Of a stretch of DNA of 64,000 nucleotides, positions 1-64,000 are shown piece by piece. The notes below the pieces were generated by a model. That model was not told the origin of the DNA and made no database searches. It worked only from the letters and a program-made list of their open reading frames with translations. Both the position numbers and the translations under genes were made by a program. The stretch is from Mobula hypostoma (lineage: Eukaryota). Each line of letters begins with the position of its first letter. Within the stretch, counting starts at the first letter, position 1. The stretch covers positions 79,734,001 to 79,798,000 of the forward strand of contig NC_086108.1 of NCBI RefSeq assembly GCF_963921235.1, given 5' to 3'.

Positions 1-2399
1 ACTTTGATTAATAAAGGCCAATGTACCAAAAGCTCTCTTTACGACCCTATCTACCTGTGACGCCACTTTTAGGGAATTTTGTATCTGTATTCCCAGATCC
101 CTCTGTTCCACTGCACTCCTCAGTGCCTTACCATTAACCCTGTATGTTCTACGTTGGTTTGTCCTTCCAACGTGCAATACCTCACACTTGTCAGTATTAA
201 TCTCCATCTGCCATTTTTTAGCCCATTTTTCCAGCTGGTCCAAGTCCCTCTGCAGGCTCTGAAAACCTTCCTCACTGTCTACTACACCTCCAATCTTTGT
301 ATCATCAGCAAATTTGCTGATCCAATTTACCACATTATCATCCAGATCATTGATATAGATGACAAATAACAATGGACCCAGCACTGATCCCTGTGGCACA
401 CCACTAGTCACAGGCCTCCACACAGAGAAGCAATTCTCTACTACCACTCTTTGGCTTCTTCCATTGAGCCAACGTCTAATCCAATTTACCACCTCTTCAT
501 GTATACCTAGCGACTGAATTTTCCTAACTAACCTCCCATGCGGGACCTTGTCAAAGGCCTTACTGAAGTCCATGTAGACAATATCCACTGCCTTCCCTTC
601 ATCCACTTTCCTGGTAACCTCCTCGAAAAACTCCAACAGACTGATCAAACATGACCTACCACGCACAAAGCCATGTTGACTCTCCCTAATAAGTCCCTGT
701 CTATCCAAATGGTTGTAGATTCTGTCTCTTAGTACTCCCTCCAATAACTTACCTACTATCGACGTTAAATTTACTGGCCTATAATTTCCCGGATTACTTT
801 TCCATCCTTTTTTTAAACAACAGAACAACATGAGCCACTCTCCAATCCTCTGGCACCTCACCCGTAGACAGCGACATTTTAAATATTTCTGCCAGGGCCC
901 CCCGCAATTTCAACACTAGTCTCCTTCAAGGTCCGAGGGAACACCCTGTCAGGTCCCGGGAATTTATCCACTTTAATTTTCCTCAAGACAGCAAGCACCT
1001 CCTCCCTTTCAATCTGTACAGTTTCCATGATCTCACTACTTGATTCCCTCAATTCCATAGACTTCATGCCAGTTTCCTTAGTAAATACAGACGCAAAAAA
1101 CCTATTTAAGATCTCCCCCATTTCCTTTGGTTCCGCACATAGCCGACCACTCTGATCTTCAAGAGGACCAATTTTATCCCTTACAATCCTTTTGCTCTTA
1201 ATATACCTGTAAAAGCTCTTTGGATTATCCTTCACTTTGACTGCCAAGGCAACCTCATGTCTTCTTTTAGCCCTCCTGATTACTTTCTTTAGTATTTTCT
1301 TGCACTTCTTATACTCCTCAAGCACCTGATTTACTCCCTGTTTCCTATACATTTCATACAACTCCCTCTTCTTCTTTATCAGAGTTGCAATATCCCTTGA
1401 GAACCAAGGTTCCTTATTCCTATTCACTTTGCCTTTAATCCTGACAGAAACATACAAACTCTGCACTCTCAAAATTTCTCCTTTGAAGGCTTCCCACCTA
1501 CTGATCGCATCTTTGCCAGAGAACAACCTGTCCCAATCCACGCTTTTTAGATCCTTTCTCATCTCTTCAAATTTGGCCTTTTTCCAGTTCAGGACCTCAA
1601 CCCTAGGACTAGATCTATCCTTGTCCATGATCAAATTGAAACTAATGGTGTTATGATCACTGGAACCAAAGTGCTCCCCTACACAGACTTCCGTCACTTG
1701 TCCTAACTTGTTTCCTAACAGGAGATCCAATATTGCATCCCCTCTAGTTGGTCCCTCTATATATTTATTTAGAAAACTTTCCTGAACACATTTTACAAAC
1801 TCTAAACCATCTAGACCCCTAACAGTATGGGAGTCCCAATCAATGTATGGAAAATTAAAATCCTCTACCACCACAACTTTATGTTTCCTGCAGTTGCCTG
1901 CTATGTCTCTGCAGATTTGCTCTTCGAAGTCTCGTTGATTATTGGGTGGTCTGTAATACAATCCCACTAATGTGGCCATACCTTTCCTGTTTCTCAGCTC
2001 CACCCATAAGGACTCAGTAGACAAGCCCTCTAATCTGTCCTGCCTGAGCACTGCTGTAATATTTTCCCTAACAAGCAATGCTACTCCCCCACTTTTCATT
2101 CCTCTGCCTCGATCACATCTGAAACATCGGAACCCTGGAATATTAAGCTGCCAGTCCTGCCCCTCCTGTAGCCAAGTTTCACTAATTGCTATAAGGTCAT
2201 AATTCCACCTCTCAATCCACGCCCTCAACTCATCCACCTTCCCCGCAATACTCCTAGCATTGAAATATATACACCTCAGAAGATTTTTACCACCACTCAC
2301 AACCCTTCTATTAGCGGATTTGCTTGAACTTTTAACATCATTTATTTTCACCCCAGCCACACTGTCAGCTCTGGCACTCTGGTTCCCATCCTCCTGCAA
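1..2399 (-). pseudogene. CR1 ORF2 (APE endonuclease plus reverse transcriptase), frameshifted
   Basis: The 506-aa ORF ends prematurely at 879. RT reading resumes after removing one base each from the C6 run (898-903) and the T7 run (808-814). Confidence 0.88.
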
Positions 2400-2401
2400 A
2401 T

Positions 2402-3040
2402 CTAGTTTAAAGCCTCCCCAACAGCACTAACAAACCTCCCTGAAAGGATATTGGTCCCCCTGTAATTCAAGTGTAACCCGTCTCTCTTGTACAAGTCCCA
2501 CCTGCCCCAGAAGAGGTTCCAATGATCCTGAAATCTGAAACCCTGCCCCCTACACCAGTTCCTCAGCCATTTGTTCATCCTCCAGAGCATCTTATTCCTA
2601 CCCTCACTGGCACGTAACACAGGTAGCAATCCTGAGATTACCACCCTCGAGGTCCTGCTTTTCAACTTCCTACCAAGCTCTCTATACTCACTCTCCAGGA
2701 CCGCCTCACTCTTCCTTGCTATGTCATTGGTACCGATGTGCACCACGACATCTGGCTGATCACCCTCCCACTCATGCAATCGATCAGAGACATCCTTGAC
2801 CCTGGCACCCGGGAGACAACAAACCATCCTGGATTCTCTGTCACGACCACAGAACCTCCTATCTTTACCTCTAACTATTGAGTCCCCTATCACTACCGCT
2901 CTCCTCTTTTTCCACCCTCCCTTCTGCACTGCATAGCCAGACTCAGTGCCAGAGATCCGGCTACTGCAGATTGTCCTAGGTAAGTCATCCCTCCCAACAG
3001 TATCCAATGCGGTATACTTGTTGTTGAGGGGAATGGCCAC
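2402..3040 (-). CDS. CR1 ORF1, SGNH/GDSL esterase-like domain (5' partial)
   Basis: GDS, GTND and DGLH blocks in the 212-aa ORF, which directly abuts ORF2. Confidence 0.85.
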   Translation of the reverse strand: MAIPLNNKYTALDTVGRDDLPRTICSSRISGTESGYAVQKGGWKKRRAVVIGDSIVRGKDRRFCGRDRESRMVCCLPGARVKDVSDRLHEWEGDQPDVVVHIGTNDIARKSEAVLESEYRELGRKLKSRTSRVVISGLLPVLRASEGRNKMLWRMNKWLRNWCRGQGFRFQDHWNLFWGRWDLYKRDGLHLNYRGTNILSGRFVSAVGEALN

Positions 3041-3169
3041 AGGGGAACCCTGCTCTGCCTGCCCATTCCTCTTCCCTCACCTAACAGTGACCCAATTTCC
3101 TGTCCTCTGCTCTTTTGGCCTAACTACCTCCCTGTAGCTACTATCTATAATCTCCTCATTCTCCTCATG

Positions 3170-6400: not shown

Positions 6401-6905
6401 CTGCACTTTCTTCGTAAATGTTGCACTTTATTTTGCACTCTTATTGTTTTACTTCGTACTATCTCAATGATTAGATCTGTATGAATAGTATGCAAGACAC
6501 GCTTTTCACTGTACGTTGCATATGACAATAATAAACAAATTCCAATAGTATCAAATAGTAACAGAGTTCTCAACACACAACGCGGACTCTGATTACACAA
6601 CTCCAATAACTCAATCATTATATACATATAAGTAAACACTAGATATGACAAACCATGAATTTAATATCCTTTGTTACTTCTCACAAGTTGAAAACTTGCT
6701 ATTAAAAGACACAGAAGGGACTTCAATTCTAATCAGAGAGCTTCTTTTGAAGTTGCGGACAGGGAACTGAAAAAAAAATCATCACTGTTCAACTAGAATA
6801 AGAACACAATTGCTGAACGATTCGGGATGTTGGCTGAGAGTGATCAGCAACTTCGGATCGCAAGGAGCTGCCGAGTTGATACTGACCGGCGGTTGATTTA
6901 AAACA

Positions 6906-7067
6906 ACAGACATAAAAGTTGTCGGTGAACGCAGCAGGCTAGGCAGCATCCCTAGGAAGAGGTAGAGGACCTCTTCCCAGAGATGCTGCCTGGCCTGCTG
7001 CGTTCACCGACAACTTTTATGTGTGTTGCTTGAAATTCCAGCGTCTGCAGATTTCCTCGTGTTTGGT
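6906..7067. mobile_element. Fold-back Penelope-terminus-derived mini-element with 13-bp TSD
   Basis: Inverted arms 6906-6963 and 6969-7026; TSD TTGATTTAAAACA at 6893-6905 and 7068-7080. Confidence 0.85.
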
Positions 7068-7197
7068 TTGATTTAAAACATGGTTCTCGCCCGGGGCACT
7101 ACTGCAGGCCACCCTGCTCGTTGCCCACTGCAAGGCCACACGTCTGATGACGCCGTTCCTATCCCAAACAACTACTTCGGTATAAAGTTACCCCTAC

Positions 7198-7220
7198 CTG
7201 CAGAGATCCCCGCACTCCAT
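7198..7220 (-). CDS. UROD: Probable first coding exon of divergent gene, uroporphyrinogen decarboxylase (MECGDLC-)
   Basis: ATG GAG TGC GGG GAT CTC TGC AG|GTAGGG on the - strand, 23 nt, phase 2. Human UROD is head-to-head with HECTD3 and has a similarly tiny phase-2 first coding exon. No downstream UROD exon was recognised in 1-7197, so the assignment rests on synteny. Confidence 0.55.
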
Positions 7221-7389
7221 ATCTACGGCTTCTGCGTCCACCGCTAGTCCCCGCTGGGCACTGCCATGTTGACAGGTAACTCCGCACCACGTGACCTATT
7301 CGGCCAATCAGTTCCCAGGGGTCGGTGACGACCCGCACGTGACGAGCATCACCCAGTCCGCGAGCGGCGGCGGTCACGTGCTCGCTCCC

Positions 7390-7450
7390 GGAGCGGAAAG
7401 CGGAGAGAGGGGATGGTCTCCGGCGCCTGAGCGGGCAGGGTGTGAAGGAA
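7390..7450 (+). other. HECTD3: Putative non-coding first (5'UTR) exon of HECTD3
   Basis: GC-rich segment downstream of the E-boxes ending in GAA|GTGAGG (7450/7451). An upstream exon is implied because an acceptor lies 6 nt before the ATG at 8968. The start position is uncertain. Confidence 0.5.
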
Positions 7451-8967
7451 GTGAGGTTAACGCAGCATCGGGCAGGCGGGCAGCGGAGCTGTCAGTGGGA
7501 ATGATAACTGTGGAGGTATTTCATAAAATGGAAAAACAGCTGATCACTCGTTCGTTGTGTAATGGCCAGTTGAGGACTTGGATTATTATGGAATTCCATT
7601 AAATATCAAGTTTTGGAGAATAACACGTATTAAAACTCATTGCACGAAAGAGATTCCTGCTGAGTTCCTCCAGCAGTTAGTGTGCTGTTTAAAATCATTG
7701 TATCCCTGATGTGGAATGTAAATACTGTAAAGGACTGTGCAGTACCATTGGAGCCCTGGCCTTCCTCTACTCGAATTCTGAGCTCTGAGTATACATTGCG
7801 TTGATTGCGTGACTTCGTCCCTCTGACTCATTAAGAAATTCTACAATTTCCTGAGCCTTTATGTCTATCTTGGGTGTTTAAAAGAAACTATTGTCGCTCT
7901 GTGTTGGTCCTGTACTGATAATCAGAATAATTTCTGTTAACTCTTTGAAAATTCTGTTTAGTTTTAATCGTTCCATTTACTGTATCTAGTTTGTGTATTT
8001 GTCAAAAAACTACTTTTGTCATCCATTTCATATTTTTTCCTTGCATGTTTTTGAAACTGCACTGGACTGATCACAGTCTAGATTTTGCGTTTGGCCCTGT
8101 AGAACTTCAGGTTTGTGCTGTACAAAGATTACACTTTTTAAATTTTCTTAACTTTGCGCAACTCTGCTCCATTTCTTTTCCAAGGGTCTTGAATGGAAAA
8201 GTTTACAGAAAGTAGTAGATACAGCCCAGTCCATCATGGGTAAAGCACTCCCCACCACTGAGCACATCTTCATGGAATACTGTTGCAGGAAAGCAGTACC
8301 TGTCATCAAGGGTCTCCATCATTCAGGCTATGCTCTTTTCTTGCTGCTGCCATCAGGAAGGAGGTACTGAAGCTTTAAGTCCCACTCCATCAGGTTCAGG
8401 AACAGTTATTACCCCTCAACCATCGGGCTCTTGAACCAGAGGGGATAATTTCAATCACCCCCAACACTTCTCTAGCCCTGTATCTCTTTCACCAGTCAAC
8501 TTCCCAGCTCTTTGCTTCACCCTCCCTCCTCCCAGTTTCACCTATCACTTTGTGCATCTCTGTCCCTCCCCCCACCTTTTAAATCTACTCATCTTTTTTT
8601 CTCCAGTCCTGCCGAAGGGTCTCAGCCCAAAATGTTGACTGCATTTTCCCCCCATAGATGCTGCCTGGCCTGCTGAGTTTTTCCAGCATTTTGTGTGTGT
8701 TGCTTTGATTTCCAGCGTCTGCAGATTTTCTCATGTTTGTAAAAAAAAATCTAGGGTGCCTTAGACTTTTGCTCAGTACTAAATACAAACAAGAGTAAGT
8801 GAAGGAGGTTATTAGGATCCTCTGAAAGACTGAATAGTTGGGTAAGAAGTAATTGAATTCAAAAGTTGCTCAAAACTCACTGATGGCCCTTCCTATCCTT
8901 TATGTTGAACTCGTATAAATAGTTATCATAAATAACGATAATTTTAACTCTTTCAATTTAGACTGCA

Positions 8968-50738
<41,771 letters not shown>

Positions 50739-52830
50739 TGACGCATGGTATCTGCTGCATTTGAATAGAATATTGTGGTTGGTGAAAGAATTAATGGTTC
50801 ATAGTTGCCTTAAAATGTTGTTGTCCTTATCTTCTCCTCCCCCCGCCCCCACACACATCCATTTCTGAGTTTCCATGGCGATTTGGTGATTCACTTTAAC
50901 CAATTGGAACAAAGAAGCTTTCATGTGCGAGTCACAAAAATGACCAATAATGCTCTCCAGTGCTGCTGTGGTGGTCATTTAGAGCCATGTGGTTACATGG
51001 CTTGTATTCCTGAGGTCACTGCTTCTGATGCAAAAAAAAAATTTTCTTAAGTCTGGGGGTAGGGTAATTCTTTGGAGAAAAAGTAAAATTGAACACTTTG
51101 TTCTTGGCTAAGCCTATAGAAGCAACTTCCAAGTCCAAAGTGCTTTGTAGCCAGTGAATTGTATTTGAAGTGTTGGAGCATTATTCTGAGCATAAATAGG
51201 GTTTATACAGCATCACAGGGTTCCACAACATCACATGAGATGGACAACTAGAAAATCAATATTCTTTGGTGTTAGTCAAAATACTCTTAAGGTTCAGTTG
51301 AATCACTAGAAAGGACTTGCTTCCTCCATGCAGCAAACTACTGTTAATCCATGTTATTCGGCTGATGCTAGATCTTACGCAAATTATTGGCCAAGAAATT
51401 ATGCACTTGGTTACCTGACTTTCCATAATTTAATATAAGTGACTGGAAAATATGTGCTGTGGACTTTGTCATTGCCATGATTCACTGCAAACATTACCCC
51501 ACCAAGCCCTTATTCACTCATACCTAATCAATGAGTCTTGAACCCTCAACCATTTAAATTAGCGATAGGCTTCTATTTGCAACTTGTTCCAGAATGGCAT
51601 TGCTAAAGGAATATTTGCTTGAATTACACACAGGAAGCATGCATGATTAAAATATGTTACTGCAGATCAATGCATTCCAACAAATAAACAACAGCAAATG
51701 CAGTGCTCTACTTGGAGGAGAATGAATATTGTAATCTTATGAATTGGATTGATAAACATGTTTTAAGTGATCACACTGAAACTGATGTTCTATGATATAA
51801 GTGACAATTTGACTTCAGAGTTTACAACAGATGAATTGGTAAGGTAATTCTGTCATTTCTGATTCGTTAAGTGAATAGATAACTTCCATCCGTCTTATAT
51901 CTGACTATCCTTAAACTGTCAGGTAAATGAAGTGAAATAGCAGAAATGCTTGGAAATTCTCCATTAGAGATACGTTAAATATCAGTCACCCCACACGTTG
52001 CTCTACTGTCTACCACTGTGACCCTTCAGTACAGCCCCAATAAAACTCCAGTTAATGAAGTGCCAGATAACTGGATGTTACTGTATAGCCAATTAGATTT
52101 TGAGTATTTGTCTCAGTAGGGTAATGGAACTTAATGCACTTTGCTACAGGGCTCTGGCCTTGTGTGAGAATGTATTGCCATCTTTTTGTTTTAGATAATA
52201 TAATAATTCAAGTTTGAATGCATTGTATCCAGTGTCTGAAATTGTATACAAATACATTCTGTACAGTTTAAGTAATCATTTATTTTCTCTGATAAAACCA
52301 TTTGAAAACTACTTCAAGCTATGTATTGTTACCCAGATTGTAGTTTCTGTACTTGCAGTGGCAACCCACAGGATAAAGGAACTTGGGTTAAAGAATAATC
52401 ACTGTTTTATGCACTCCCTTGATACCTGGGGTGCTCTGAATCTCAGAATTTTTTCATTCAGAGCTTTGCTATCTCCCAGAAAGACCAGTAGATGGGAGCA
52501 CAGCATTAAGAGTCTTTTCCAGCAGATGTGCTCTACATGGTGACAAAAAAAATTGGCTGGATTTCTATAAGTAATGATAATCTTGCTCTCCCTTTCTGCT
52601 AAAATAATTGTTGCTGTTATTAATGATGCCATTGAGACCAAACAGAAGGAAATACAAGTTAATCGGTCTATTTATATGTGAAATTCATGCAACCTAGCTA
52701 ATTAATACCTAGTTGGGTATGATCTTCTAGTTTATACAATTCATCTTCACAGTTACTTGTTCAGTGAAATATGTAATTTAAGATGTTTAATACTATATTA
52801 AAATATTAAAATCAAAGCTGTGAAATGATA
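50739..52830 (+). other. HECTD3: Probable HECTD3 3'UTR
   Basis: AT-rich stretch after the stop codon with no recognisable TE. Candidate polyA signals are AATAAA at about 51683 and 52039, and ATTAAA at about 52797 and 52804. The true end is unknown. Confidence 0.45.
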
Positions 52831-54424
52831 TTTTGTCATACATGCTCAGTGGAATTGCATTTTGAATAGCATGAGAAGTTCAGAATTCTATAGCAGCGAG
52901 AAGTGTTTTTGATAAAATAAGTCAACCAGTCTCATCTCAGTTCCTGTTATCATAACTATTAATGAATACAATCTATTTCTATGGATAATGTTCATTGACA
53001 TGGATCATTGATTTAATTGGTTGCAATGGTTGTGCACGACAGATGTGAGGATAAAAAGCATGGATAGTTGAGTCTGATGTCGGTTTATTCAGTGAATGGT
53101 GATGACAGGATTGACATTCAGAAAAGCATTGAAGGATGTGGGACGGATATTTCTGTGGTGCTGAGGAACTGAGTAGGCATGACTTGTGTGCCTTGACAAT
53201 GTAATTATGAATGTTGGACTGACTGACCAGCTCTACGCAGGACAAAGGAGAAATTGCCCTTCTTGAATGTCATAAACTATCTCCTTGACCAAGTCTGCCG
53301 GTCAAGAGCTGATGTGGTGGGGTGAGGCTGCATTACAGTGTCTAAGACCGTTGACTGTAGGGAGAGACATACATGGATCACCACTGCATATTGAGAATAG
53401 GTCAGGCACATTTTGTGAATAGCCTTTGGCGAGATCCCAGGCCTTGCATCGTGCTGGTTACTAAAGTGAATTGATGCAAGAACTGGAGTTTGAAAGCTAA
53501 CAGACTTGCACAGCAATGATTATATTCATTCAGTAGTGAAAAAAATGGATATTGTATAACTGCAATGAAACAGGATTTGAGGGTACTCATGGATTAGTCA
53601 ATGTCTTTGAAGAAATAGACCATTAATATTCAGGTTAATGACCCCTCAGAATTACAGTTGTGCAGGTTAATGACTGCTTGGAACAATAAACACGCTGAAC
53701 TTCATAAGACCATAAAACATTGGAACAGAATCAGGCCATTTAGTCCATACAGTCTGCTCTGCCATTCTATCTTGGCTGATTTATTATCTCTCTCAATCCC
53801 ATTCTCCTGTCTTCTCCCTGTAACCTTTGATGTCTCAATCTCCTTGTCTTGTTGCAATGAAACGGCAGAGCAAACATGTGACAGTACTGTCAGTAGATTA
53901 GCCTCCATTAGACAAAATAATTTTCAACTGCCTTAACTGTCTGAACACAGTCAAAGTTGTCCCTATAGATTTAAAATTTGGCAGTGCATATTTCTCTTTC
54001 CACTTTTACTTCCTTATGTTTCCAAACTGAGCTAAGGTCCTCTGCCAAGCAATTCCAGCTGAGTTTGGGACTAGGAACTTCCTTACGCAGCTAGTTACTT
54101 AATTATTGAGCCAGGGTGACAAATTGCTTATTATTTTGAGCTGTCAAACCCATGTGTGTTTTCTTCACATCTTGTCTCAGTTTTTTTGTGTGTTTGCTTT
54201 AAAAGCCAATAATTAACTGTAACTCTTCTCTTAATACTTCTGTTGCAAAAGTCCAAAGAAATTCCTGAAATACAGCAGTTAATAGTCACTGCTGGATCAA
54301 TGAAGCTGACTATTTTGGAATGCAGACATAGTGGATGCCTTATTATGAATATATAGTAGCCTCCAGTAAGTGAATATTGTACATTTTTATGGAATGAAGA
54401 TTGCCCCTTTTTGTCTATATACTT

Positions 54425-54830
54425 AGACCATAAGACATAGGAGCAGAATTAGGTCATTCAGCCCTTTGTGTCTCCACCATTTTAGTATCCCTCTCAACTC
54501 CCTTTTCTCCGTAACTTTTGATGCCTTTACTATTAAAGGACCTATCAATCTCCACTTTAAATATACCCAATGACTGGTCCTCCACAGCCGTCTGTGGCAA
54601 TAGATTCCATAGAATCATCACCCCCTGGCTAAAGAAACTCCTCCTCGTTTCTGACCTAATGGCGCATCCCACTATTCTGAGGCTGTGCCCTCTGGTCCTA
54701 GACTTCCCCACTATCAGAAACATCCTCTCCATGCCCATTCTGTCTAGGCAATTGAATATTCAACAGGTTTCAGTGAGAGCCCTCCCGTGCTTCAGAACTC
54801 CGGCGGGTAGAGGTCCAGAGCCATCAAGCA
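54425..54830 (-). mobile_element. CR1 3'-end fragment
   Basis: TAGACCATAAGACATAGGAGCAGAATT tail and KSRTRGHSLRI..FFSQGV.LWNLLP in ORF 54454-54738. Confidence 0.75.
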
Positions 54831-54894
54831 CTATTTGAGATTTAGTAACAATGCAATTCCTTTGAACACCCTAAGTTGATGTTGCTAACTCTTG

Positions 54895-55178
54895 CTTTAT
54901 TTATTTCTTTATTGAGATTCAGTGAGGAGTAGGCCCTTTGGGCTGCACCACCCAGTAACCCCCGATTTAGCCCTAGCTTAATCACAGGACAATTTATAAT
55001 GACCAATTAACCTACTAACTGGTACGTCTTTGGAGTGTGGGAGGAAACCAGAGCACCTGGAGGAAATCCACACATTCGTCAGAAGAATGTACAAACTCCT
55101 TTCAGACAGCCAGTAGAAATGAACCCAGGTCGCTGGTACTGTAGAGCATTGTGCTAACAACTAAGCTACCATGCCACC
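54895..55178 (-). mobile_element. V-SINE (HE1-like)
   Basis: Reverse complement has a tRNA-like head and GGATTTCCTCCAGGTGCTCTGGTTTCCTCCCAC V-domain. Confidence 0.7.
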
Positions 55179-56555
55179 CATATTTGCACAACTATATTCA
55201 GATACTTTCAATGTTACACAAGTTAAGGATAAGGGCATATCAAATTATTGTAAATAAATTTTAGGCAATAATGTAATACTGAAGTTAAGCTCACAAAACA
55301 TTGTGATTTAATATCTTAATACTGTGCTACAGAACACTCCTTTGAATGTTCTGAGTTATTTGGTGTAAGGAAGTCATAGAAAAATAAAGCACAGGGCCTT
55401 TGGCCCATCTAGTCTGTGCCGAACCATCTAGCCCTCACATGAGTATTTTCTTCGGTACAGAATAATATCTGAAAGTCCAGTGCATTGGAGAGGGCAGATG
55501 ATGGATGCTTCCTGGAGGAGATTATCTGAAAGGTGAAAATAAATTGGTTTTATGGAGGCTTTTGAGCGTGATGGTGACCTAGCATAGAAGATTCAGACAA
55601 GGTAAAATGGAAAAAATAGGTACAAATGAGAAAACAAATTAAATAGGCACTGCTGCAGCAATTATCCGCATCAATTCCATCCCAGAGAAAGCCACAAGGC
55701 TGTAGAATATGTAGGAACTTAATTTATCTGTCCTTCGTTACTAAAAGGCCTATCTGTACACACTTCCTGTTTACAATTTTTTTTACACTTAATTTTTTTA
55801 ATCACATCTTGTGTTAAGAACAATGATAGCCCAAGAAAATGACTTTTGCATTCTGTACCTCCCTGGTGACCCCACCCCCACACTGCTATATTTTACTCAA
55901 CTATCTGACTGTTCACTCAAATCATTCTTGAAGCTCTCTAAAATGTTGCATTCCTTCTCTTTAAATAAAATCTCCACTATTCAACAAGGGTATAATTGTA
56001 ATGGGTAGAATATCTTGTATAATAATGTTATTGAATTTCTATTGAAACGGTTATATTAATTACATAATTTTATTTTCACTTGAAAACTTCATGGCCTAAG
56101 CTTTGAGCTGAACTTAAATCTAGGTACCCGCATTGCAGCTAAATTCCTTGAAATCATCAGCATTATTCTAGCAGTTTATGCTTGGTTGTTGGGATTCTCA
56201 GCCGATATTCCTCAGGATTATTGCATGAAACATTGTAGGATAAATTTTAGATCTTTGAGGAAAAAGTTTTATCTAAATACAGAAGGCAGCAAGTAGGCTT
56301 CATTTGAGCTGCGTTTGACATTGCTTCATTTTCCTGTTACACTTGTATTTTCACCTAGAAGGAAATAACATTAAAATATTACTGCAAAACAAAAACCGAA
56401 ATCGAATCAGAAATAAAAATAACAGAATAAACACACACACACATGTTCATATAATCAACATCATATGGCAGCTGCAGTTTTTTTTAGACTTAAGCTCACC
56501 TGTTCAATCTCCGTAATTTCTGTGTGTCATATTACTAGCAACAAGCCATGCAAAA

Positions 56556-57166
56556 TACACTCATTGCTATTTAATTATTTATGGTGCAACTGTAATGAAA
56601 ACCAATTTCCTCAGGATCAATAAAGTATGACTATGACCGGCAGACCTGTGAACTTCGCTAATGCAAGTGAGCCCATCATGTGGCAGCAACTCAGTGCATA
56701 AGAGTATGCAGGCATGGTCAAGAGGTTCAATGTTGTTCAGACCAAACATCAGAATGGGGAACGAATGTGATCAAAGTGACTGTGACCATGGAATGATTGT
56801 TGTTGCCAGATGGGATAGTTTGAGTATCTCAGAAACTGCTCATCTCCTGGGATTTTCATGCACAAATGCACAACATTCTCTAGATTTTACAGAGAATGGT
56901 GCGATAAACAAAAAAACATCCAGTGAGCAGCAGTTCTTGCTGGATGAAAGTGTATTGTTAATGAAAAAGATCAGAAGGGAATGGCCAGACTGGTTCAAGC
57001 TGACAGGAAGGCAACAGTAAATCAAATAATGACTCGTTACAACTGTAGGATGCAAAAGAGCATCTCTGAATGCACAATGCATTGAACCTTGAAATGGATA
57101 GGCTACATCAGCAGAAGACCACACTGGGGTCTACTCCTGTACCTAATAAAGTGGCTGCTGAGTGTC
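56556..57166 (+). mobile_element. Internally deleted Tc1-like DNA transposon
   Basis: MG..CDQSDCDHGMIVVARWDSLSISETAHLLGFS is a Tc1 N-terminal HTH. The right end CCTAATAAAGTGGCTGCTGAGTGT is TIR-like, with a degenerate left counterpart TACACTCATTGCTATTTAATTA. Confidence 0.75.
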
Positions 57167-58030
57167 TATTGAGAAATAATTGAAGAATTTTAGGTTGGGA
57201 AGTACAATACAGAATAGAGAAGTTAATATTAAAGACTGAAGTATAAACAAGTATAGCTCTTAAACTTCAACAACAATTAAAACTTGAGTGGCTGAGATTC
57301 CACATTTTCAGCACCAGAGAAACTGAATGCTGGATGGAAAAAAAATTGTCATTAAAAATATAGTGCTTTGCCTTAAATGACTTCTGTGCTAAATTTGCTT
57401 CATGGGTAAAATACAAATATATTAAGAGAAGATTCTGAAAATCATTAACAGGATTGAAGCTGAGAAACTGGTTTCTGTAGTTGAGATTGTTAAACTTGTA
57501 AGTTTTGTGGAGTTGGCATTTAGATCTGAGATGAGATTTTTTTTAAGGGTTTTAAATCTGCAATTTTCTACTCAGCGGGTTGTGGATTCTCAGTCATTGA
57601 ATATAGCCAAAACATTGATTTTTGAAAGCTAATATATTCAACACATGGATTGGCAGATTTTTGAAAGCTAATGAATTCAAATGGTATGAGATTAATTATG
57701 GCCATGGACTTTAGGGGCAGAATCGGCCAAGCTGTTATTGGTTACTGAGGGGCTACATTCAGTCCCTCTTCCTTGTATTCTTATTTCATTCTGTTAAACA
57801 GATTTGAGTAAGGAAGTGAACAGGATTAGGACTTGTCCGAAACTGAATAAGATCCAGACTGATCTAATCTTGGCCGCCATTCTGCTTTACCACCTGTTCC
57901 TTATAAACCTTCAGTTTTACAATAGTTCAGCAATCTGAATCAGATTTGCACCCAGAGCTCTCTGCATAGAGAATTCCCTGGATTTGCAACCTTCTGTATG
58001 AAGAAATAAGAAACAAATAGTGAGATGCTG

Positions 58031-60400
58031 TAAGACCATAAGACATAGGAGCAGAATTGTCATTTGGCCCATCAAGTCTGCTCCACCATTCGACATGTCA
58101 ATCCATGGCCTCCTGTACTGTCATGTTGAGGCCACACTCGGGTTGGAGGAGCAACACCTTCTATTCTGTCTGGATAGCCTCCAACCTGATGGCGTGAACA
58201 TCACTTTCTCCAACTTCTAGTATTGCCCCTCCTTCACCATTCCTTATCCCCTTTTCCCATCTCTCACTTAACTCCTTGCCTGCCCATCGCCTCCTGGTGC
58301 TCCTCCCTGTGTCCTATGGCCTCCTATCATCTCTTGTTAGATTCCCCCTTCTCCAGCCCAGTATCTCTTTCACCAATGAACTTTTCTACTATTTACTTCA
58401 CCCCCTCCTCCCCATCCCGGTTTCACGTATCACCGTGTGTTACTCCCTTCCATCCCCCCAAGTTCTTAATCCAGTTCTGCTGAAGGGTCACAGCCTGAGA
58501 TGTCGATTATATTCTTTTCCATGGATGCTGCCTGGCCTGCTGAGTTCCTCCAGCATTTTGTATGTGTTGCTTGGATTTCCAACATCTGCAGATTTCTCTT
58601 GTCCAGCATTCAATCATGTCTGATCTTTTTTTCTCTTCCTCGACCTTCTCCCTGTAACCTTTGATGATGTGGCCAATCAAGAACCTTATCAATTTTCTCC
58701 TTAAATACACCCAACAACCTGGCCTCTACAGCTGCCTGTAGTAACAAATTCCACAAACTCACCACCCTCTGGCTAAAGAAATTACTCCACATCTGTTTTA
58801 AATGGACATCCCTCTATCTTGAGGCTGTGCCTTCTTGTCCTGGACTCCCCCACCATGAGAAACATCCTTTCCACATCCTGACGAAGGGTCTCAGCCCAAA
58901 ACGTCGACTGTACCTCTTCCTAGAGATGCTGACTGGCCTGCTGCGTTCCCCCAGCAACTTTTATGTGTGTTGCTTTCCACATCTACTCTGTCTAGGCCTT
59001 TCAACATTCAAAAGGTTTCAATGAGATTCCCCCACCCCCATTCTTCCATCCTTCTAAAGTCTAGCAAGTACAGGCCCAGAGCCATCAAATATTCCTCATA
59101 TGATAACCTTTTCATTCCTGGAGTCGCTACTCCTCTGAACCCTCTCCAATGCCAGGACATCTTTTCTTAGTTAAGGAGCTGAAAGCTGTTCATAATACGG
59201 AAGGTGAGGCCTTCCCAGTGCCTAAAAAGCCTCAGCATCACATCCCTGCTCTTATATTCTAGACCTCTTGAAATGAATGCTAACATTACATTTGCCTTCC
59301 TCACCACCAACTCAACCTGCAAGTTAATCTTTAGGGTGTTCTGCACAAGGACTTCCAAGTCTGTTTGCATCTCAGATTTTTGGATTTTCTCCCCATTTAG
59401 AAAATAGTCTGCACATTTATTTCTGCCAAAATGCATGACACATTGTATTTCATTTGCCACTTTCTTGCCCATTCTCCTAATCTGTCCTTCTGGAGTCTTC
59501 CTGCCCCTCCACCAATCTTCATATCATCTGCAAACTTGGCAACAAAGCCATCTATTCCATCCTCTAAACCATTGATATACAACACTAAAAGAAGTGGTCC
59601 CAACATTGATCCCTGCAGAACACCACTAGTCACTGGCAACCAATCAGAAAAGAATCCTTTTATTCCCACTCGCTGCCTCCTACCAATCAGCCAATGCTCT
59701 AACCATGCTAGCAACTTTTCTGTAATACCATGGGCTCTCAACTTGGTAAGCAGCCTCCTGTGTGGCATCTTGTCCAAGGCCTTCTGAAAATTCATATATA
59801 CAACATTCACTGCAATCTTTTATCTAAACTACTTGTAATTTCCTCAAAAAATTCCAATGGGTTTGTCAGGCAATATTTTCCCTTGAAGAAACTGTGCTGA
59901 CTTTGTCCTATCTTGTCCTGTGTCACCAAATAGTCCGTAGCCTCATCCTTAACAATTGACTTCAACTTTGTCCCAACCATTGAGGTCAGGCTAACTGGTT
60001 CATAGTTTCCTTTCTGCTGCCTTCCTCCTTTCTTAAAGAGAGAAGAGACATTTGCAATTTTCCAGTCCTCCAGAACTATACCAGAGACCAATAATTCTTG
60101 AAAGTGTATTACTAATGCCTCCACAATCTCTATCGCTACATCTTTCAGAACCCTAGGGTGCAGTTCATCTGGTACGGGTGACTTATGTATTTAGGTCTTT
60201 CAACTTTTTGAGCACCTTCTCCCTTGTAATAGTAACTGCACTCACTTCTCTTCCCTCGCACCCTTCAACATCTGGCACACTGCCAGTGTCTTCCACTGTG
60301 AAGACTGATGCAAAATACTGATTTAGTTCATTAGCCATCTCCTTCTCCCCATTACTATTTCTCTGGCCTCATTTTCTAGTGGTCCTATATCCACTCTCAT
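58031..60400 (-). mobile_element. CR1 LINE 3' half, degenerate, with two nested Penelope-derived inserts (58092-58601, 58878-58972)
   Basis: ORFs 59807-60124, 59397-59810 (GVLQGSMLGPLL, KFADD) and 59167-59472; CR1 tail at 58031. Confidence 0.9.
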
Positions 60401-60657
60401 CTCTCTCTCTCTTTAATATGCTGTGTAAGTGCTGTAGGAGATGAGTTGATCCCTAAGTTCTCTTTCAAATGAAAAAGATCAATACAAGTAAATGAAAGCC
60501 CTATGACAATCATGTTTATTCATTATTAATGAATATAAATTTAGCCTTGCAAAACTAATTGTAAATTGGCAATTGTCAGGTAAGATCTTAGTAATAGAGG
60601 CTTCCCAGTCATGACCACCGACTTTTTTTGGATACACAAAAGCCAGCATTTCATAGT

Positions 60658-60928
60658 TTGTTTGTTTACTTATTGAGGTACAGTGCAGAATAGGCCCTTC
60701 CTGCCCTTCAAGCTGCACCACCCAGCAAAATCCCAATAAAATCTTAGCCTAATCATGGGACAATTTACAATGACCAATAAACCTACCAAATGGTATGTTT
60801 TTGGAATGTGAGAAGAAACCCGCATATTCATGGTGAGAAAATAAAAACTCATTAACAGGTCACGGAGGGAATTGAACCTGAGTTGCCGGTACTGTAAAAC
60901 ATTGTGCTAACCCCCTATGCTACCACAT
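60658..60928 (-). mobile_element. V-SINE (HE1-like), degenerate
   Basis: Similar to 54895-55178 across its length. Confidence 0.65.
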
Positions 60929-61149
60929 CCCCCAAACTTGTCTAACCCTAATAAAATTTAACTGGTTTGCCAAGAAATTGCACAATTGCTTCAAGCATTC
61001 TGCACTGGGGAGAGAGAGGAAAAAAACAACTGGGAAAACCACAGCCTGTAGAATCAGAAATTCAACAAAATAAATAAATGCTGAACAAGACCAGATTTTG
61101 TAGCAATTGATTAAAATCTCTGGATGGCATTTGATAATACAACACTGGA

Positions 61150-62290
61150 CAAGCTATTTGCTCCACAGGGTTGTGCCATTTTTGATGTGAATTTGTACTA
61201 CATATCCTCCTGTGTATTTCCCATATCCCTCCATTCCCTTCATATCTAAAATCCTCTTAAACTCCATCAAACTGTCTGCTTCCACTACCATCCCTGACAA
61301 CCTATTCCAAGCACCTACCACTCTCCACATAAAAAACACAAAAAAAAACTACCCTTCATATCACCTTTAAACTCCCCAACTCCCTCACCCACTTAACGTG
61401 TGTTTTCTGGTGTTTAACATTTCTACCCTGGGGAAAAGATTCTGAGTGTCTACCTTGTCTATGCCTCTCATAATTTTTTAAAAAACTATCTTGTCTTCTT
61501 CCAGCCTCTGACACTCTTGGGAGACAACCAAAGTTTTATCTAACCTTTCCCGATAGCTCATACCTTCTAATCCTGGTAAACCTCTGCACTCTCTCCACAG
61601 TCTTCACATCCTTCCTATAATAAGGTATCCAGAACTGCACACGATACAGTCTGACTAAAGTTTTAAGTACCTGCAGCACGACTTCCTTACTCTTGTACTC
61701 AAAATTCCTCGCAATGAAGGTGAGTCGTCTTTACCACCTTATCCAATTGCATAGCCACTTTCTGAGAACTAAAGACCTGGACCCAAAGATACTTCTGTAC
61801 CTCAGTGCCATTAATTGTATATTTTCATCTGACCTTCCAAAATGCAACACTTCACATTTACCCAGATTAAACTCCATCTGCCATTTCTCTGCCCATATGT
61901 GTAACTAATTGGTATTATTTGGTAACCAACTACACTACCTGCAACTTGACCAATCTTGCTAATCCATCAATTCACATTTTCATCCAGATCACTGATATAT
62001 TATAAGCACCAGAGGTCCCACATGAACCCTTGTGCAACATTGCTGGTCACAGACATCCAGCTAGAACTCTGTCTTCTATGTGCAAGCCACTTCTGAATCC
62101 AAAATCACAATTCACCCTGGATGCCATGTATCTTTATCTTCTGAATCAACCAACCATGAGGACCTTACTAGAGTCCATGTAGATAATGTCTACTGCTTTG
62201 CCCAATTCAAGCTCCTTTGTCACCTCAAGAAACTTGATCAAGTTCGTAAGGCATAAACTGTCCTGCACAAAACTATGCTGATTGTCCCCA
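61150..62290 (-). mobile_element. Degenerate CR1 3' portion
   Basis: FFMWRVVGAWNRLSGMVVEADSL and the reverse complement of W.MEFNL.KCEVLHFGRS. Confidence 0.75.
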
Positions 62291-62488
62291 AGCTAATAGA
62301 TTGGAACTCTGTTTGCTTATTTACATATAATAACTTTGCAGGAATATTTTTATATCCTTATTTTGTTTAGTATCTTTAATTTCACTCGTCCAATGTGCCA
62401 TTATATCCTTACTGTTGAAATTAAGACTTTGTGAGGAAGAAACATTTGACTGGATACTCGGATAAGGACCAAATATGTGCTGTAGATG

Positions 62489-63033
62489 TGTAACGACCTG
62501 CTAATTTAATGGTTTCTCTGTAGCACAGTGTTTGGGTTATGTCTAGAAACAACGGGGCTTTGGAATGTGCACTGGCCAATGAGGAGAGATGTTTTTCTTT
62601 CTCGTGTGTCCGAGTGGAGGTTTTGCGGTCTTTTGTTCGGCGGAAGATGGAGAGAGAAGATGCCAGAACAGGGAAGTTGTAGTTTGCAGGATGGAGTGGA
62701 CTTGAATGGGGTTGGGAGTTGACGGCGCCTGGGTGGAAATCGATGGAGAATGAACAGACGGGAAAGCAGCAAGCTCCAATGTTGCGCATTAGACTGTTTC
62801 ATGAGATCGGGCCCTTTTTCTTTTTTGTTTCTTTACTAACCGTATAGTCAAATTAAGAATTATAAAGCTAAATTGTTTAATTGCATATTGTGTACTGTTT
62901 GTTATTTTGTGGCACTGATTTGTAATGGGGGAAAACATCACGCAGCATCCACCCAAACAAGATTTCTCAAGTTCGGCCAGGCCGGAGGCTGTCTTCCCCT
63001 ACATTAAACCTCTAGCCAAGCCTGAGGGTTACA
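62489..63033. mobile_element. Solo LTR (545 bp) of an LTR retrotransposon or ERV
   Basis: Terminal inverted hexamers TGTAAC (62489-62494) and GTTACA (63028-63033), flanked by a 4-bp TSD GATG (62485-62488 and 63034-63037). Confidence 0.8.
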
Positions 63034-64000
63034 GATGCAAAACAGCCTAAGTCTTTGACTAGGCAGTTAGTGGAATTGGTAGCTCAGGTACAGAGAATTC
63101 AATGAGTCCAAGGGATCTGTTTGCAGGGAACCACAAAATGCTGAAGGCAGCATCTATAGAGGGGAATAAACTGTCAACGTTTTGGACCAAGTCCCTTCAT
63201 AGGGACTGGTGGAGGCAAGTTCCCAGGAAGGTCGCGCAGCTGTGATCAGCAAGCATGTGATCAAAGAGTTGGAGGGTAGCAGAGATCATTGGGGTGGGGC
63301 AGGGGAACAATGAGAGTGAGACTCACTGAACTCCCAACAAAGAGAAGATTTGAACTTCTTCAGGGCAGTGGAGCAGCAAATCATAATAAACACAAGGGAT
63401 TCTGCAGATGCTGGAAATCCAGAGCAACACACACAAAATGCTGGAGGACCTTTGCAGGTTAGGCAGCATCTTCGGAGGGGAATAAACAGTAGACGTTTTG
63501 GCTGAGACCCTGGTGAAACATTGACCATTCATTCTCTTCCATAGGTGATGTCTGACCTGCTGCAGCACTCCAGCACTTAAGTGTGTTTGGAGTGAAGTGG
63601 GAAAGTGCATCTAAGGATCTGGCCAATAGAGGGGGTACTTCCACCATTCACATTTAAAATGACATCACTATCCCCTTAAGGCTAGTTAGGGATGGGCAAT
63701 AAATCCTGTTCTTGTCACCCATCCTTGTAATGCAAGGATGGATGCAATAAAAATTAAGATTGTAATAGCTCATTCGAAGAAACAAATTAGATCAGTGAAT
63801 TGTACGTTCTTTACAATTAGTGGGAATTATAGAACATGGTGGGAGTTGTATGCTAGAAAATATCAAATAACTTGTTGAAAAACATTTGTTTCCATATAAT
63901 TAACATTCTGCAATGTAATATTCGCAACTTACTATACATAACATATACACTGTAGAATTCAAACCTCTGGCTTGTGTAGTTCAGTGGCCCAGTAATTAAA

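Follow-up and report, generated by a model that had tools for sequence, protein, structure and literature searches.

Short inserts in a ray genome as probable severely 5′-truncated copies of a Neptune-type Penelope-like element

The short inserts dispersed through the 64,000-nt stretch of ray DNA analysed here (the window, to which all copy counts refer) are best explained, with a probability of about 0.82, as severely 5′-truncated insertions of an endonuclease-bearing, Neptune-type Penelope-like element (PLE) with at least three subfamilies, the hammerhead being a passenger of the terminus whose cleavage is not required. A profile of the PLE terminus gave 16 matches with E<1e−3 out of 25 at E<=10 in the window; ten of the 16 were seeds and six were not, and the top match in the reversed window, used as a control, had an E-value of 0.5. 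One PLE terminus accounts for 18 arms. Its recurrence at 12 loci, reported in an earlier note on this DNA, was reproduced at all 12, and a 33-nt terminus fragment overlooked there (M, 7656–7688, plus strand, E = 7.7e−4) starts at about +33 relative to the hammerhead cut. The same note spoke of tiny non-coding inserts, which is accurate for the eight loci without coding sequence, whereas the other four are ends of longer 5′-truncated copies (8467–8740, 10700–12492, 29414–30424 and 58086–58601). Copies of 33, 59, 95, ~275, ~520, at least 1000 and 1800 bp form a length series sharing one terminus.

The 1.8-kb copy (C, 10688–12504, plus strand) is a 5′-truncated Neptune-type PLE containing a partial reverse transcriptase (RT), a CX2-5CxxC linker, a frameshifted GIY-YIG domain and a terminus without tail. 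It has its own 12-bp target-site duplication (TSD; 10688–10699/12493–12504), of the same size as the TSDs of the short copies. The RT domain matched Pfam RVT_1 at E = 1e−5, under the curated cut-off, and the GIY-YIG domain downstream of it matched Pfam GIY-YIG at E = 3.8e−4, just under the cut-off. RT relatives numbered 239 out of 565 candidates (best 58–92% identity), the closest being ray proteins (82–92%), which supports the earlier assignment of the host to the cartilaginous fish. The linker precedes GIY-YIG in C, as it does in 19 of 19 full-length relatives; according to the definition used for this comparison, it is missing in Penelope/Poseidon. By its linker, and in line with the reported vertebrate range, the element would be an EN+ PLE of the Neptune type. 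The features of Neptune/Nematis EN+ PLEs are found here, namely RT, C-terminal GIY-YIG, linker, minimal hammerhead, tail and an inverted truncated copy; the window holds no full-length PLE copy and no upstream pLTR. Among the other longer copies, B (8467–8740, plus strand, ~275 bp) comprises a pyrimidine-rich 3′ region, a decayed hammerhead and a tail, with no TSD found; E (29414–30424, minus strand, at least 1 kb) comprises the RT thumb, GIY-YIG, 3′ region and hammerhead, with nothing left of the sequence beyond the latter; and I (58082–58611, plus strand, ~520 bp) comprises the GIY-YIG end, 3′ region, decayed hammerhead and tail, with a 9/10 TSD candidate and a single host repeat running on across both flanks. 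A scan of viral contigs found no copies of the terminus. Two scans of metagenome contigs gave 0 and 66 exact 19-mer matches, none of the 66 accompanied by the remaining terminus or a PLE body, and we attribute them to chance. Searching 120 RT relatives with the terminus returned spurious short matches only.

Among the short copies, A (6893–7080, both strands) is bounded by a 13-bp TSD (6893–6905/7068–7080) and consists of a tailless inverted arm (6906–6964), a 4-nt filler and a tailed direct arm (6969–7067); the arms lack the ribozyme core, are 93% identical and have private 9-mers in common. D (15441–15730, both strands) lies in a CR1-like LINE within a 12-bp TSD and is composed of a tailless inverted arm (15453–15545), a 41-nt CR1-like filler (15546–15586) and a tailed direct arm (15587–15718). 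J (58867–58983, plus strand), with an 11-bp TSD, is a 95-nt solo terminus that starts at −28/−30 and has neither a tail nor the 5′ strand of stem I. G (42068–42126, plus strand), a 59-nt solo terminus without tail or TSD, starts at −5 and interrupts the RT region of a different PLE copy, a decayed body (41840–43227, plus strand) extending from RT to the 3′ region, its own terminus gone. F (36540–36730) and H (43758–43880), each on both strands, are old inverted pairs of a diverged subfamily without TSDs. F has a tail on its direct arm; H, the weakest case, has none on either arm, and its inverted arm gave no match in the profile search of the window.

Of three TSDs described earlier as clean, those at 6893/7068 (13/13) and 58867/58973 (11/11) were recovered exactly, but that at 15441/15719 agrees at 11 of 12 positions, with one mismatch. 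An exact repeat of at least 11 nt arose by chance in the same search box at a frequency of 0.002 (2 of 1000 random pairs). A paralogous empty site (45194–45204) corroborates the TSD of J, and G has an empty-site paralogue as well. The claim that the inserts possess their own TSDs applies to A, D and J, but none was found for B, F, G and H, nor for K and L (see below) taken singly. Insertion of the copies by target-primed reverse transcription, with TSDs of 10–13 bp, is supported. Four of five TSDs are not AT-rich, and no microsatellite targets were seen in the window. A resemblance of target sites to the tail of the element was unsupported (combined p = 0.20 over five TSDs).

That the copies stem from a Penelope-like terminus carrying a minimal type I hammerhead is likewise supported. 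In C this hammerhead (12396–12433, plus strand) has stem I at 12396–12400/12429–12433, a core from 12401 and stem II at 12409–12420, with predicted cleavage after 12428. The hammerhead motifs attributed to the family were matched by a minimal-hammerhead descriptor in three of the 18 arms (against one match in 40 shuffled windows), but the complete minimal hammerhead is confined to C, the only copy with the full 5-bp stem I. Eight arms span the core and the remaining arms begin within or behind it. In the alignment of eight copies 86% of cells are paired, with no compensatory change. An Rfam search of the window returned no hammerhead at E<=10 and six chance-level matches of other kinds; folding z-scores were not significant for nine of ten termini, K having −2.8. 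Most minimal hammerheads occur singly and probably represent truncated PLEs (PMC4209133).

The 5′ ends of the short copies lie between about −34 and +33 around the cut. The arms of A start at +6/+7, just behind the cut, as does one arm of H, the direct one. Those of F start at about −20/−17 and both arms of D at about −31; D, J and K together span −28 to −34, and no short arm reaches further upstream than about −34. At most one arm starts within 2 nt of the cut and none clearly at +1 (one automated call gave +2). Tabulated against the cleavage site, as had been proposed, the breakpoints are scattered and not placed at the cut, yet they are not smoothly spread: 7 of 13 insertions end inside the ~45-nt hammerhead region (P = 2e−4 to 0.06 under null fractions of 0.114–0.3, which are our assumption). 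Bases upstream of the cut are kept in 10 of 14 short arms, and those arms were therefore not copied from cleaved RNA.

The 3′ ends fall at two sites, one on either side of a ~37-nt tail. The proximal site was used in the inverted arms of A and D, in C, G, J and K and in the plus arm of L, the tail end in the direct arms of A, B, D, F and I and in the minus arm of L; A, D and F have exactly one tailed arm each. Such two-site 3′ ends around the tail are the published PLE signature: two RT start sites with the tail between them, both strands cut and extended, and hammerhead mutants that still insert (PMC11167929). Inverted arms are on record too, in the form of an inverted pLTR with a tail and an 8–10-bp TSD (PMC3846280; PMC8557442). 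The start sites here are GU-rich on the sense strand. A degenerate repetition of the preceding 35 nt by the tail was unsupported (p = 0.24, 0.49, 0.03 and 0.57). At least five inverted pairs had been counted; A and D are strong, with none of 2000 adjacent random segments scoring as well, but F, H and L are weaker (3, 7 and 5 of 2000, respectively). Read by eye, the head-to-head junctions display 2–4-nt microhomology at ribozyme helices or palindromes, or filler DNA.

In the mechanism that we propose, the RT/GIY-YIG protein would bind the terminal ~100–135 nt of the element RNA, by analogy with PAc biochemistry, and nick both target strands 10–13 nt apart, as the TSDs suggest. Reverse transcription would begin at either site flanking the tail, and the cDNA would mostly halt early, often in the hammerhead region, on RNA uncut there in the case of the 10 of 14 short arms. 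A single primed strand would leave either a stump on its own or a truncated copy of greater length, whereas a second arm, joined through microhomology or filler DNA, would produce a head-to-head pair. For the second arm we favour priming from the second nick, which has a slightly better than even chance, over fold-back self-priming, which appears rather doubtful. De novo PLE insertions have a median length of 128 bp through 5′ truncation (PMC9977147).

The earlier note had instead envisaged a hammerhead-released short RNA mobilised in trans as a SINE- or retrozyme-like family. The eight non-coding loci, the TSDs of the short copies and the starts of A and of the direct arm of H just behind the cut would agree with this, but the upstream bases in most short arms, the shortage of +1 starts and the single complete ribozyme make it very unlikely. 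Nor do the short copies form a distinct non-autonomous subfamily: in the terminus tree, which has low resolution (1 of 13 branches starred), they interleave with long copies, C, J and both arms of A making up one clade (99/99), and the long/short label changes three times against a shuffled mean of 2.9. The inserts consist of PLE terminus throughout, with no tRNA- or 5S-derived Pol III head (no tRNA genes in the window and no match to Rfam tRNA or 5S) and no separate family defined by a consensus of its own and a constant 5′ end; as to retrozymes, copies are solo or head-to-head, not head-to-tail units with complete type I hammerheads, and do not end at the cleavage site. Short transcripts with ends at the cut were sought in public contigs, a weak test in that contigs cannot show RNA ends and run X9 is RNA by guess, and neither a depth step at the cut (X1, X9) nor a short-RNA excess was seen. 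Summed depth in X1 peaks at 14.8M over the ribozyme core (12404–12424), with 10–11M behind the cut and 8–10M at the endonuclease end; in X9 depth at the endonuclease end equals that of the terminus. A 621-bp piece matched 207,025 contigs of one run, contig depth not being a copy number. Finally, the sole PLE tested uses unprocessed RNA, with no reads ending at the cut (PMC11167929).

Two further explanations concern how the stumps became short. Reverse transcription might start internally at tail sites of the upstream pLTR and run off the 5′ end of a master transcript starting near −32, with trimming and microhomology joining scattering the ends downstream. This is possible, if rather unlikely: no short arm lies above about −34 and four start at −28 to −34, PAc shows internal initiation at the pLTR–ORF junction (PMC11167929), and X1 has a 5′ loose end at 12397 (−32; 594 contigs, agreement 0.39), the only one near the terminus among those listed. 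However, the transcript start is putative, the consensus of the loose end resembles the 3′ region of another, diverged subfamily, and RT stalling on the folded ribozyme would give the same crowding, in a small sample. Run-off is compatible with severe truncation and could refine it. Later shortening of longer copies by deletion or recombination could be argued from the missing 3′ end of E, the lost terminus of the PLE copy hosting G and internal deletions in K and G. It is very improbable, given that intact TSDs adjoin A, D and J on either side and that J and G have empty-site paralogues; it was excluded for these four insertions, leaving F, H and M as candidates. Separately, three features sit uneasily with plain truncation, namely the crowded 5′ ends, the likeness of K+L to a short partial tandem, and five old short copies without TSDs.

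K and L (63118–63596, both strands) are probably one composite. On the minus strand a tailed terminus (63511–63390) is followed by a 174-nt spacer and a second terminus (63215–63131), and an inverted arm occupies 63514–63583 on the plus strand. The 11/13 TSD candidate (63118–63130/63584–63596) was equalled in 1% of 3000 random boxes, with about 11 boxes tried. Judged from its sequence, K+L may be a single insertion with a retrozyme-sized, 316-nt hammerhead-to-hammerhead unit, a single case. That it is a partial-tandem insertion of a non-autonomous mini-PLE seems improbable: the same-strand termini, 316 nt apart from cut to cut, share a private 13-mer, the flanking repeat encloses them and units of animal non-LTR retrozymes are of similar size, but the spacer is single-copy in the window, both ribozymes are incomplete, and a full element that later lost internal sequence, or host DNA captured between pLTRs (PMC3846280), fits equally. 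An extension of K into the PLE 3′ region was unsupported (p>=0.08), as was a spacer encoding the ORF N-terminus (outside the top 12 of 2550 tiles; no protein match), one of three frames, at 12 of 300 random frames, being no more than a weak lead. A bolder joint reading, which we consider rather unlikely, makes stumps a built-in part of the PLE cycle (dimeric RT/endonuclease, priming from both nicks, tail sites in the 5′ pLTR of the transcript) instead of random truncations and adds a K+L mini-element; the hammerhead region would cap length (about −32), its helices would supply the microhomology joining two cDNAs head to head, and in the 316-nt K+L one would see a retrozyme just emerging from the end of a PLE in a ray.

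The most likely value of these observations is for annotation, an abundant Neptune-type PLE leaving stumps mistakable for SINEs or MITEs. PLE transposition is poorly resolved, and many copies could test dual priming against fold-back and the role of the hammerhead. K+L, if true as a repeated 316-nt unit, would be an example from a cartilaginous fish of the step from PLE to retrozyme that has been proposed. Metazoan non-LTR retrozymes, reported in one chondrichthyan genome (PMC7229834; bioRxiv 10.64898/2026.07.22.740005), are also non-coding, with type I hammerheads and kinship to PLE termini, but form head-to-tail arrays with a complete ribozyme per unit and circular RNAs, whereas the inserts here are solo or head-to-head with ribozymes cut off, K+L being the sole partial likeness. 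Neptune/Nematis elements (Craig et al. 2021, PMC8557442) share the RT, linker, C-terminal GIY-YIG, hammerhead in the terminus, 5′ truncation, adjacent inverted truncated copy and 30–40-bp tail at one end; here, both arms can be stumps and microsatellite targets were not seen. The Anolis Poseidon element PAc (Frangieh et al. 2024, PMC11167929) belongs to another clade, shows a preference for AT-rich targets and initiates within an AC-rich loop, yet its minimal hammerhead is likewise followed by a tail with an RT start site on either side, and it inserts from uncleaved RNA and extends both strands. Penelope of Adineta vaga (Arkhipova et al. 2013, PMC3846280) differs in its few copies and longer pLTRs (~200 bp), and in that study self-priming from an antisense template is the preferred mechanism; it is similar in its inverted pLTRs, one-arm tail, 8–10-bp TSDs, palindromic junctions, solo pLTRs and foreign DNA captured between pLTRs, the last paralleled by D and perhaps K+L.

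The small inserts made of the 3′ terminus of a Neptune-type Penelope-like element (PLE) are real, and they are mostly ordinary. The dispersed terminus repeat described in the earlier note was borne out by self-comparison of the window and by a profile search, which gave 16 matches with E < 1e−3 among 25 at E ≤ 10, six of the 16 outside the ten seeds (best E in a reversed-window control, 0.5). In total we count 18 copies of the terminus (arms, direct or inverted) at 13 loci, A to M, including two weak ones, namely, the inverted arm of F (36540–36730; profile E = 0.11) and that of H (43758–43880), detected by arm-to-arm alignment only. M (7656–7688) was absent from the earlier list. The three target site duplications (TSDs) claimed at A (6906–7067), D (15453–15718) and J (58878–58972) stand at 13/13, 11/12 and 11/11 identical positions, respectively; an exact repeat of at least 11 occurs in 2 of 1000 random boxes, and the J duplication is present once at a paralogous empty site (45194–45204). 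No TSDs were found for B (8467–8740), F, G, H, or K and L taken singly. G (42068–42126), a 59-nt terminus without a TSD, sits in the reverse transcriptase (RT) region of another PLE copy of the same family.

Four of the 12 loci listed as tiny inserts are not tiny, because they are longer truncated copies: B (~275 bp), I (58086–58601; ~520 bp, 9/10 TSD candidate), E (29414–30424; at least 1 kb) and C (10700–12492), so that insert sizes lie between 33 and 1800 bp. A previously overlooked 12-bp TSD (10688/12493) flanks C, which encodes a partial RT with a GIY-YIG domain downstream (Pfam E = 1e−5 and 3.8e−4, each below the curated cut-off). Among named proteins, the nearest relatives of this RT come from rays (82–92% identity) and sharks (66–77%), which supports the proposed cartilaginous-fish setting. 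C and 19/19 full-length relatives have a CX2-5CxxC linker, given in passages of Craig et al. (PMC8557442) as a mark of Neptune and Nematis versus Penelope/Poseidon. By every feature testable in the sequence, the element classifies as an EN+ PLE of Neptune type.

Adjoining C is a separate truncated retroelement (12648–13857), in which a frame containing RNase H (12731–13408, minus strand) lies between 182-bp direct repeats (12648–12829 and 13678–13857; 90% identity). The window also holds a young CR1/L2-type LINE (160–3076, minus strand; ORF1 SGNH/GDSL esterase 2402–3076, ORF2 APE endonuclease 879–2426) and older CR1-like fragments at 38367, 45053, 58607–60190 and elsewhere. Broken frames at 19696–20616 (minus strand), without a Pfam match in the one frame scanned, resemble a restriction-like-endonuclease non-LTR element. 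An open frame at ~8990–9285 (plus strand) ends at a GT donor-like site and has no Pfam match; it may be a host-gene exon (ZZEF1-like), in which case the window may be largely intronic.

An Rfam search of the window found no hammerhead. A descriptor for minimal type I hammerheads, following passages of Cervera and de la Peña (PMC4209133), matches 3/18 arms versus one match in 40 shuffled windows; full stem I is found in C only, with cleavage predicted after 12428. Eight arms span the core; 86% of their stem cells are paired, with zero compensatory changes. The claimed motif is therefore real in the family, but most short inserts carry a cut-off or decayed version. Just behind the hammerhead, at 12436–12451 and, as in most arms, at the corresponding positions of A, B, D, F, H, J and K, lie a pyrimidine tract, AG and ATG, which look like a candidate splice acceptor plus start codon. 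In D. virilis Penelope, an intron end maps at the hammerhead, according to part of the same source (PMC4209133).

The earlier note proposed a ribozyme-processed short RNA mobilised in trans as a SINE- or retrozyme-like family, and the 5′ breakpoints, a check suggested in that note itself, speak against it. Placed manually from alignment and junctions, the 5′ ends of short arms lie, relative to the predicted cut, at +6 and +7 (A), about −31 and −32 (D), about −20 and −17 (F), −5 (G), −8 and about +3 to +10 (H), −28/−30 (J), about −34 (K), −21 and −9 (L) and +33 (M); automated profile columns gave the same signs, though over-running into flanks. Bases upstream of the cut are kept in 10/14 short arms (9/13 without K), and those arms cannot derive from the 3′ cleavage product. 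Nor does a distinct short subfamily emerge: a tree of the 16 arms long enough to include (all but E and M; 1/13 branches firm) places long copy C with J and both arms of A (99/99), and mapping short versus long onto it takes 3 changes, the shuffled mean being 2.9. These sequences show no separate short family. The 5′ ends do crowd in the ~45-nt ribozyme region (7/13 insertions, or 8/14 with K and L separate; P from 2e−4 to 0.06 for assumed null fractions of 0.114–0.3), and no short arm extends beyond about −34. Stalling of RT, microhomology, or transcription starting near −32 would each account for this crowding. The stretch is present, whole or in part, in twenty public runs. Of 24 listed runs, four were aligned to 11900–12520: two sets of contigs (X1, DNA; X9, RNA by guess only) and two raw-read runs, from which no reads aligned. 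Summed contig depth in X1, from which, as in X9, neither copy number nor RNA ends are readable, was 4–10M at the endonuclease end, 2–7.5M in a diverged pyrimidine region, 14.8M at the ribozyme core and 10–11M behind the cut, showing neither a rise at the cut nor a large surplus of terminus relative to coding end across 11900–12520. X9 depth was similar, the tail appearing as a loose end behind 12495; among the loose ends listed for X1, one lies at −32 (agreement 0.39, low), its consensus resembling the 3′ region of E. Contig depth points, weakly, away from a cleaved short RNA. By the tests applied, the element qualifies neither as a retrozyme nor as a SINE.

The 3′ ends fall at two sites: a proximal one (12493–12495 in C), used by C, G, J, K, the inverted arms of A and D and the plus arm of L, and a distal one about 37 nt further, used by the direct arms of A, B, D, F and I and the minus arm of L. 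The ~37-nt stretch between them is the PLE tail, present on exactly one arm in A, D and F and on neither in H. Target duplications are staggered by 10–13 bp, and the two arms of a pair resemble each other (93% and shared private 9-mers in A; 84% in D). Read by eye, pair junctions fall on self-complementary spots: a GTAC palindrome with a short local duplication (A), overlaps of 4 nt (F) and 3 nt (H), and stem II (L). The D arms are joined via a 41-nt filler (15546–15586) matching at 87% a CR1-type piece 630 bp downstream (16217–16255), possibly templated filler or a template switch. A protein would bind the terminal RNA, both target strands would be nicked, and RT would initiate at a tail site and halt early. 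For the inverted pairs we favour second-nick priming rather than fold-back, given that arms lacking the tail terminate at the same place as solo copies, but the present data do not tell these two routes apart; self-priming is preferred by Arkhipova et al. in part of PMC3846280. For PAc, passages of PMC11167929 place the tail between two RT start sites, with both strands cut and extended, and report that hammerhead mutants insert normally.

K and L (63118–63596), laid out as inverted arm, terminus with tail, 174-nt spacer and terminus, may represent a single composite insertion. On either side of 63131–63583 lies an 11/13 repeat (equalled in 1% of 3000 random boxes, with about 11 boxes having been tried), and K shares a private 13-mer with the L minus arm. 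A distance of 316 nt separates the cut sites of K and L, which falls within the size range of animal retrozyme units in parts of PMC7229834 and bioRxiv 10.64898/2026.07.22.740005. A deleted full element, or host DNA captured between termini, fits as well; the spacer is single-copy within the window and attempts at its identification yielded no match. Starting at the ATG that follows the ribozyme, a frame of about 49 codons crosses the tail and enters the spacer.

In the open literature we found no account of the ray family or of hammerhead-bounded breakpoints; Dfam, Repbase, subscription papers and supplements may contain one, notably the supplementary tables of the retrozyme preprint (bioRxiv 10.64898/2026.07.22.740005), which include a chondrichthyan. 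For Adineta PLEs, passages of PMC3846280 report inverted pLTRs with a tail on one side, 8–10-bp TSDs, palindromic junctions and capture of foreign DNA, and such features figure as general PLE traits in part of PMC8557442. De novo PLE insertions in Chlamydomonas, as given in part of PMC9977147, have a median of 128 bp and arise by 5′ truncation.
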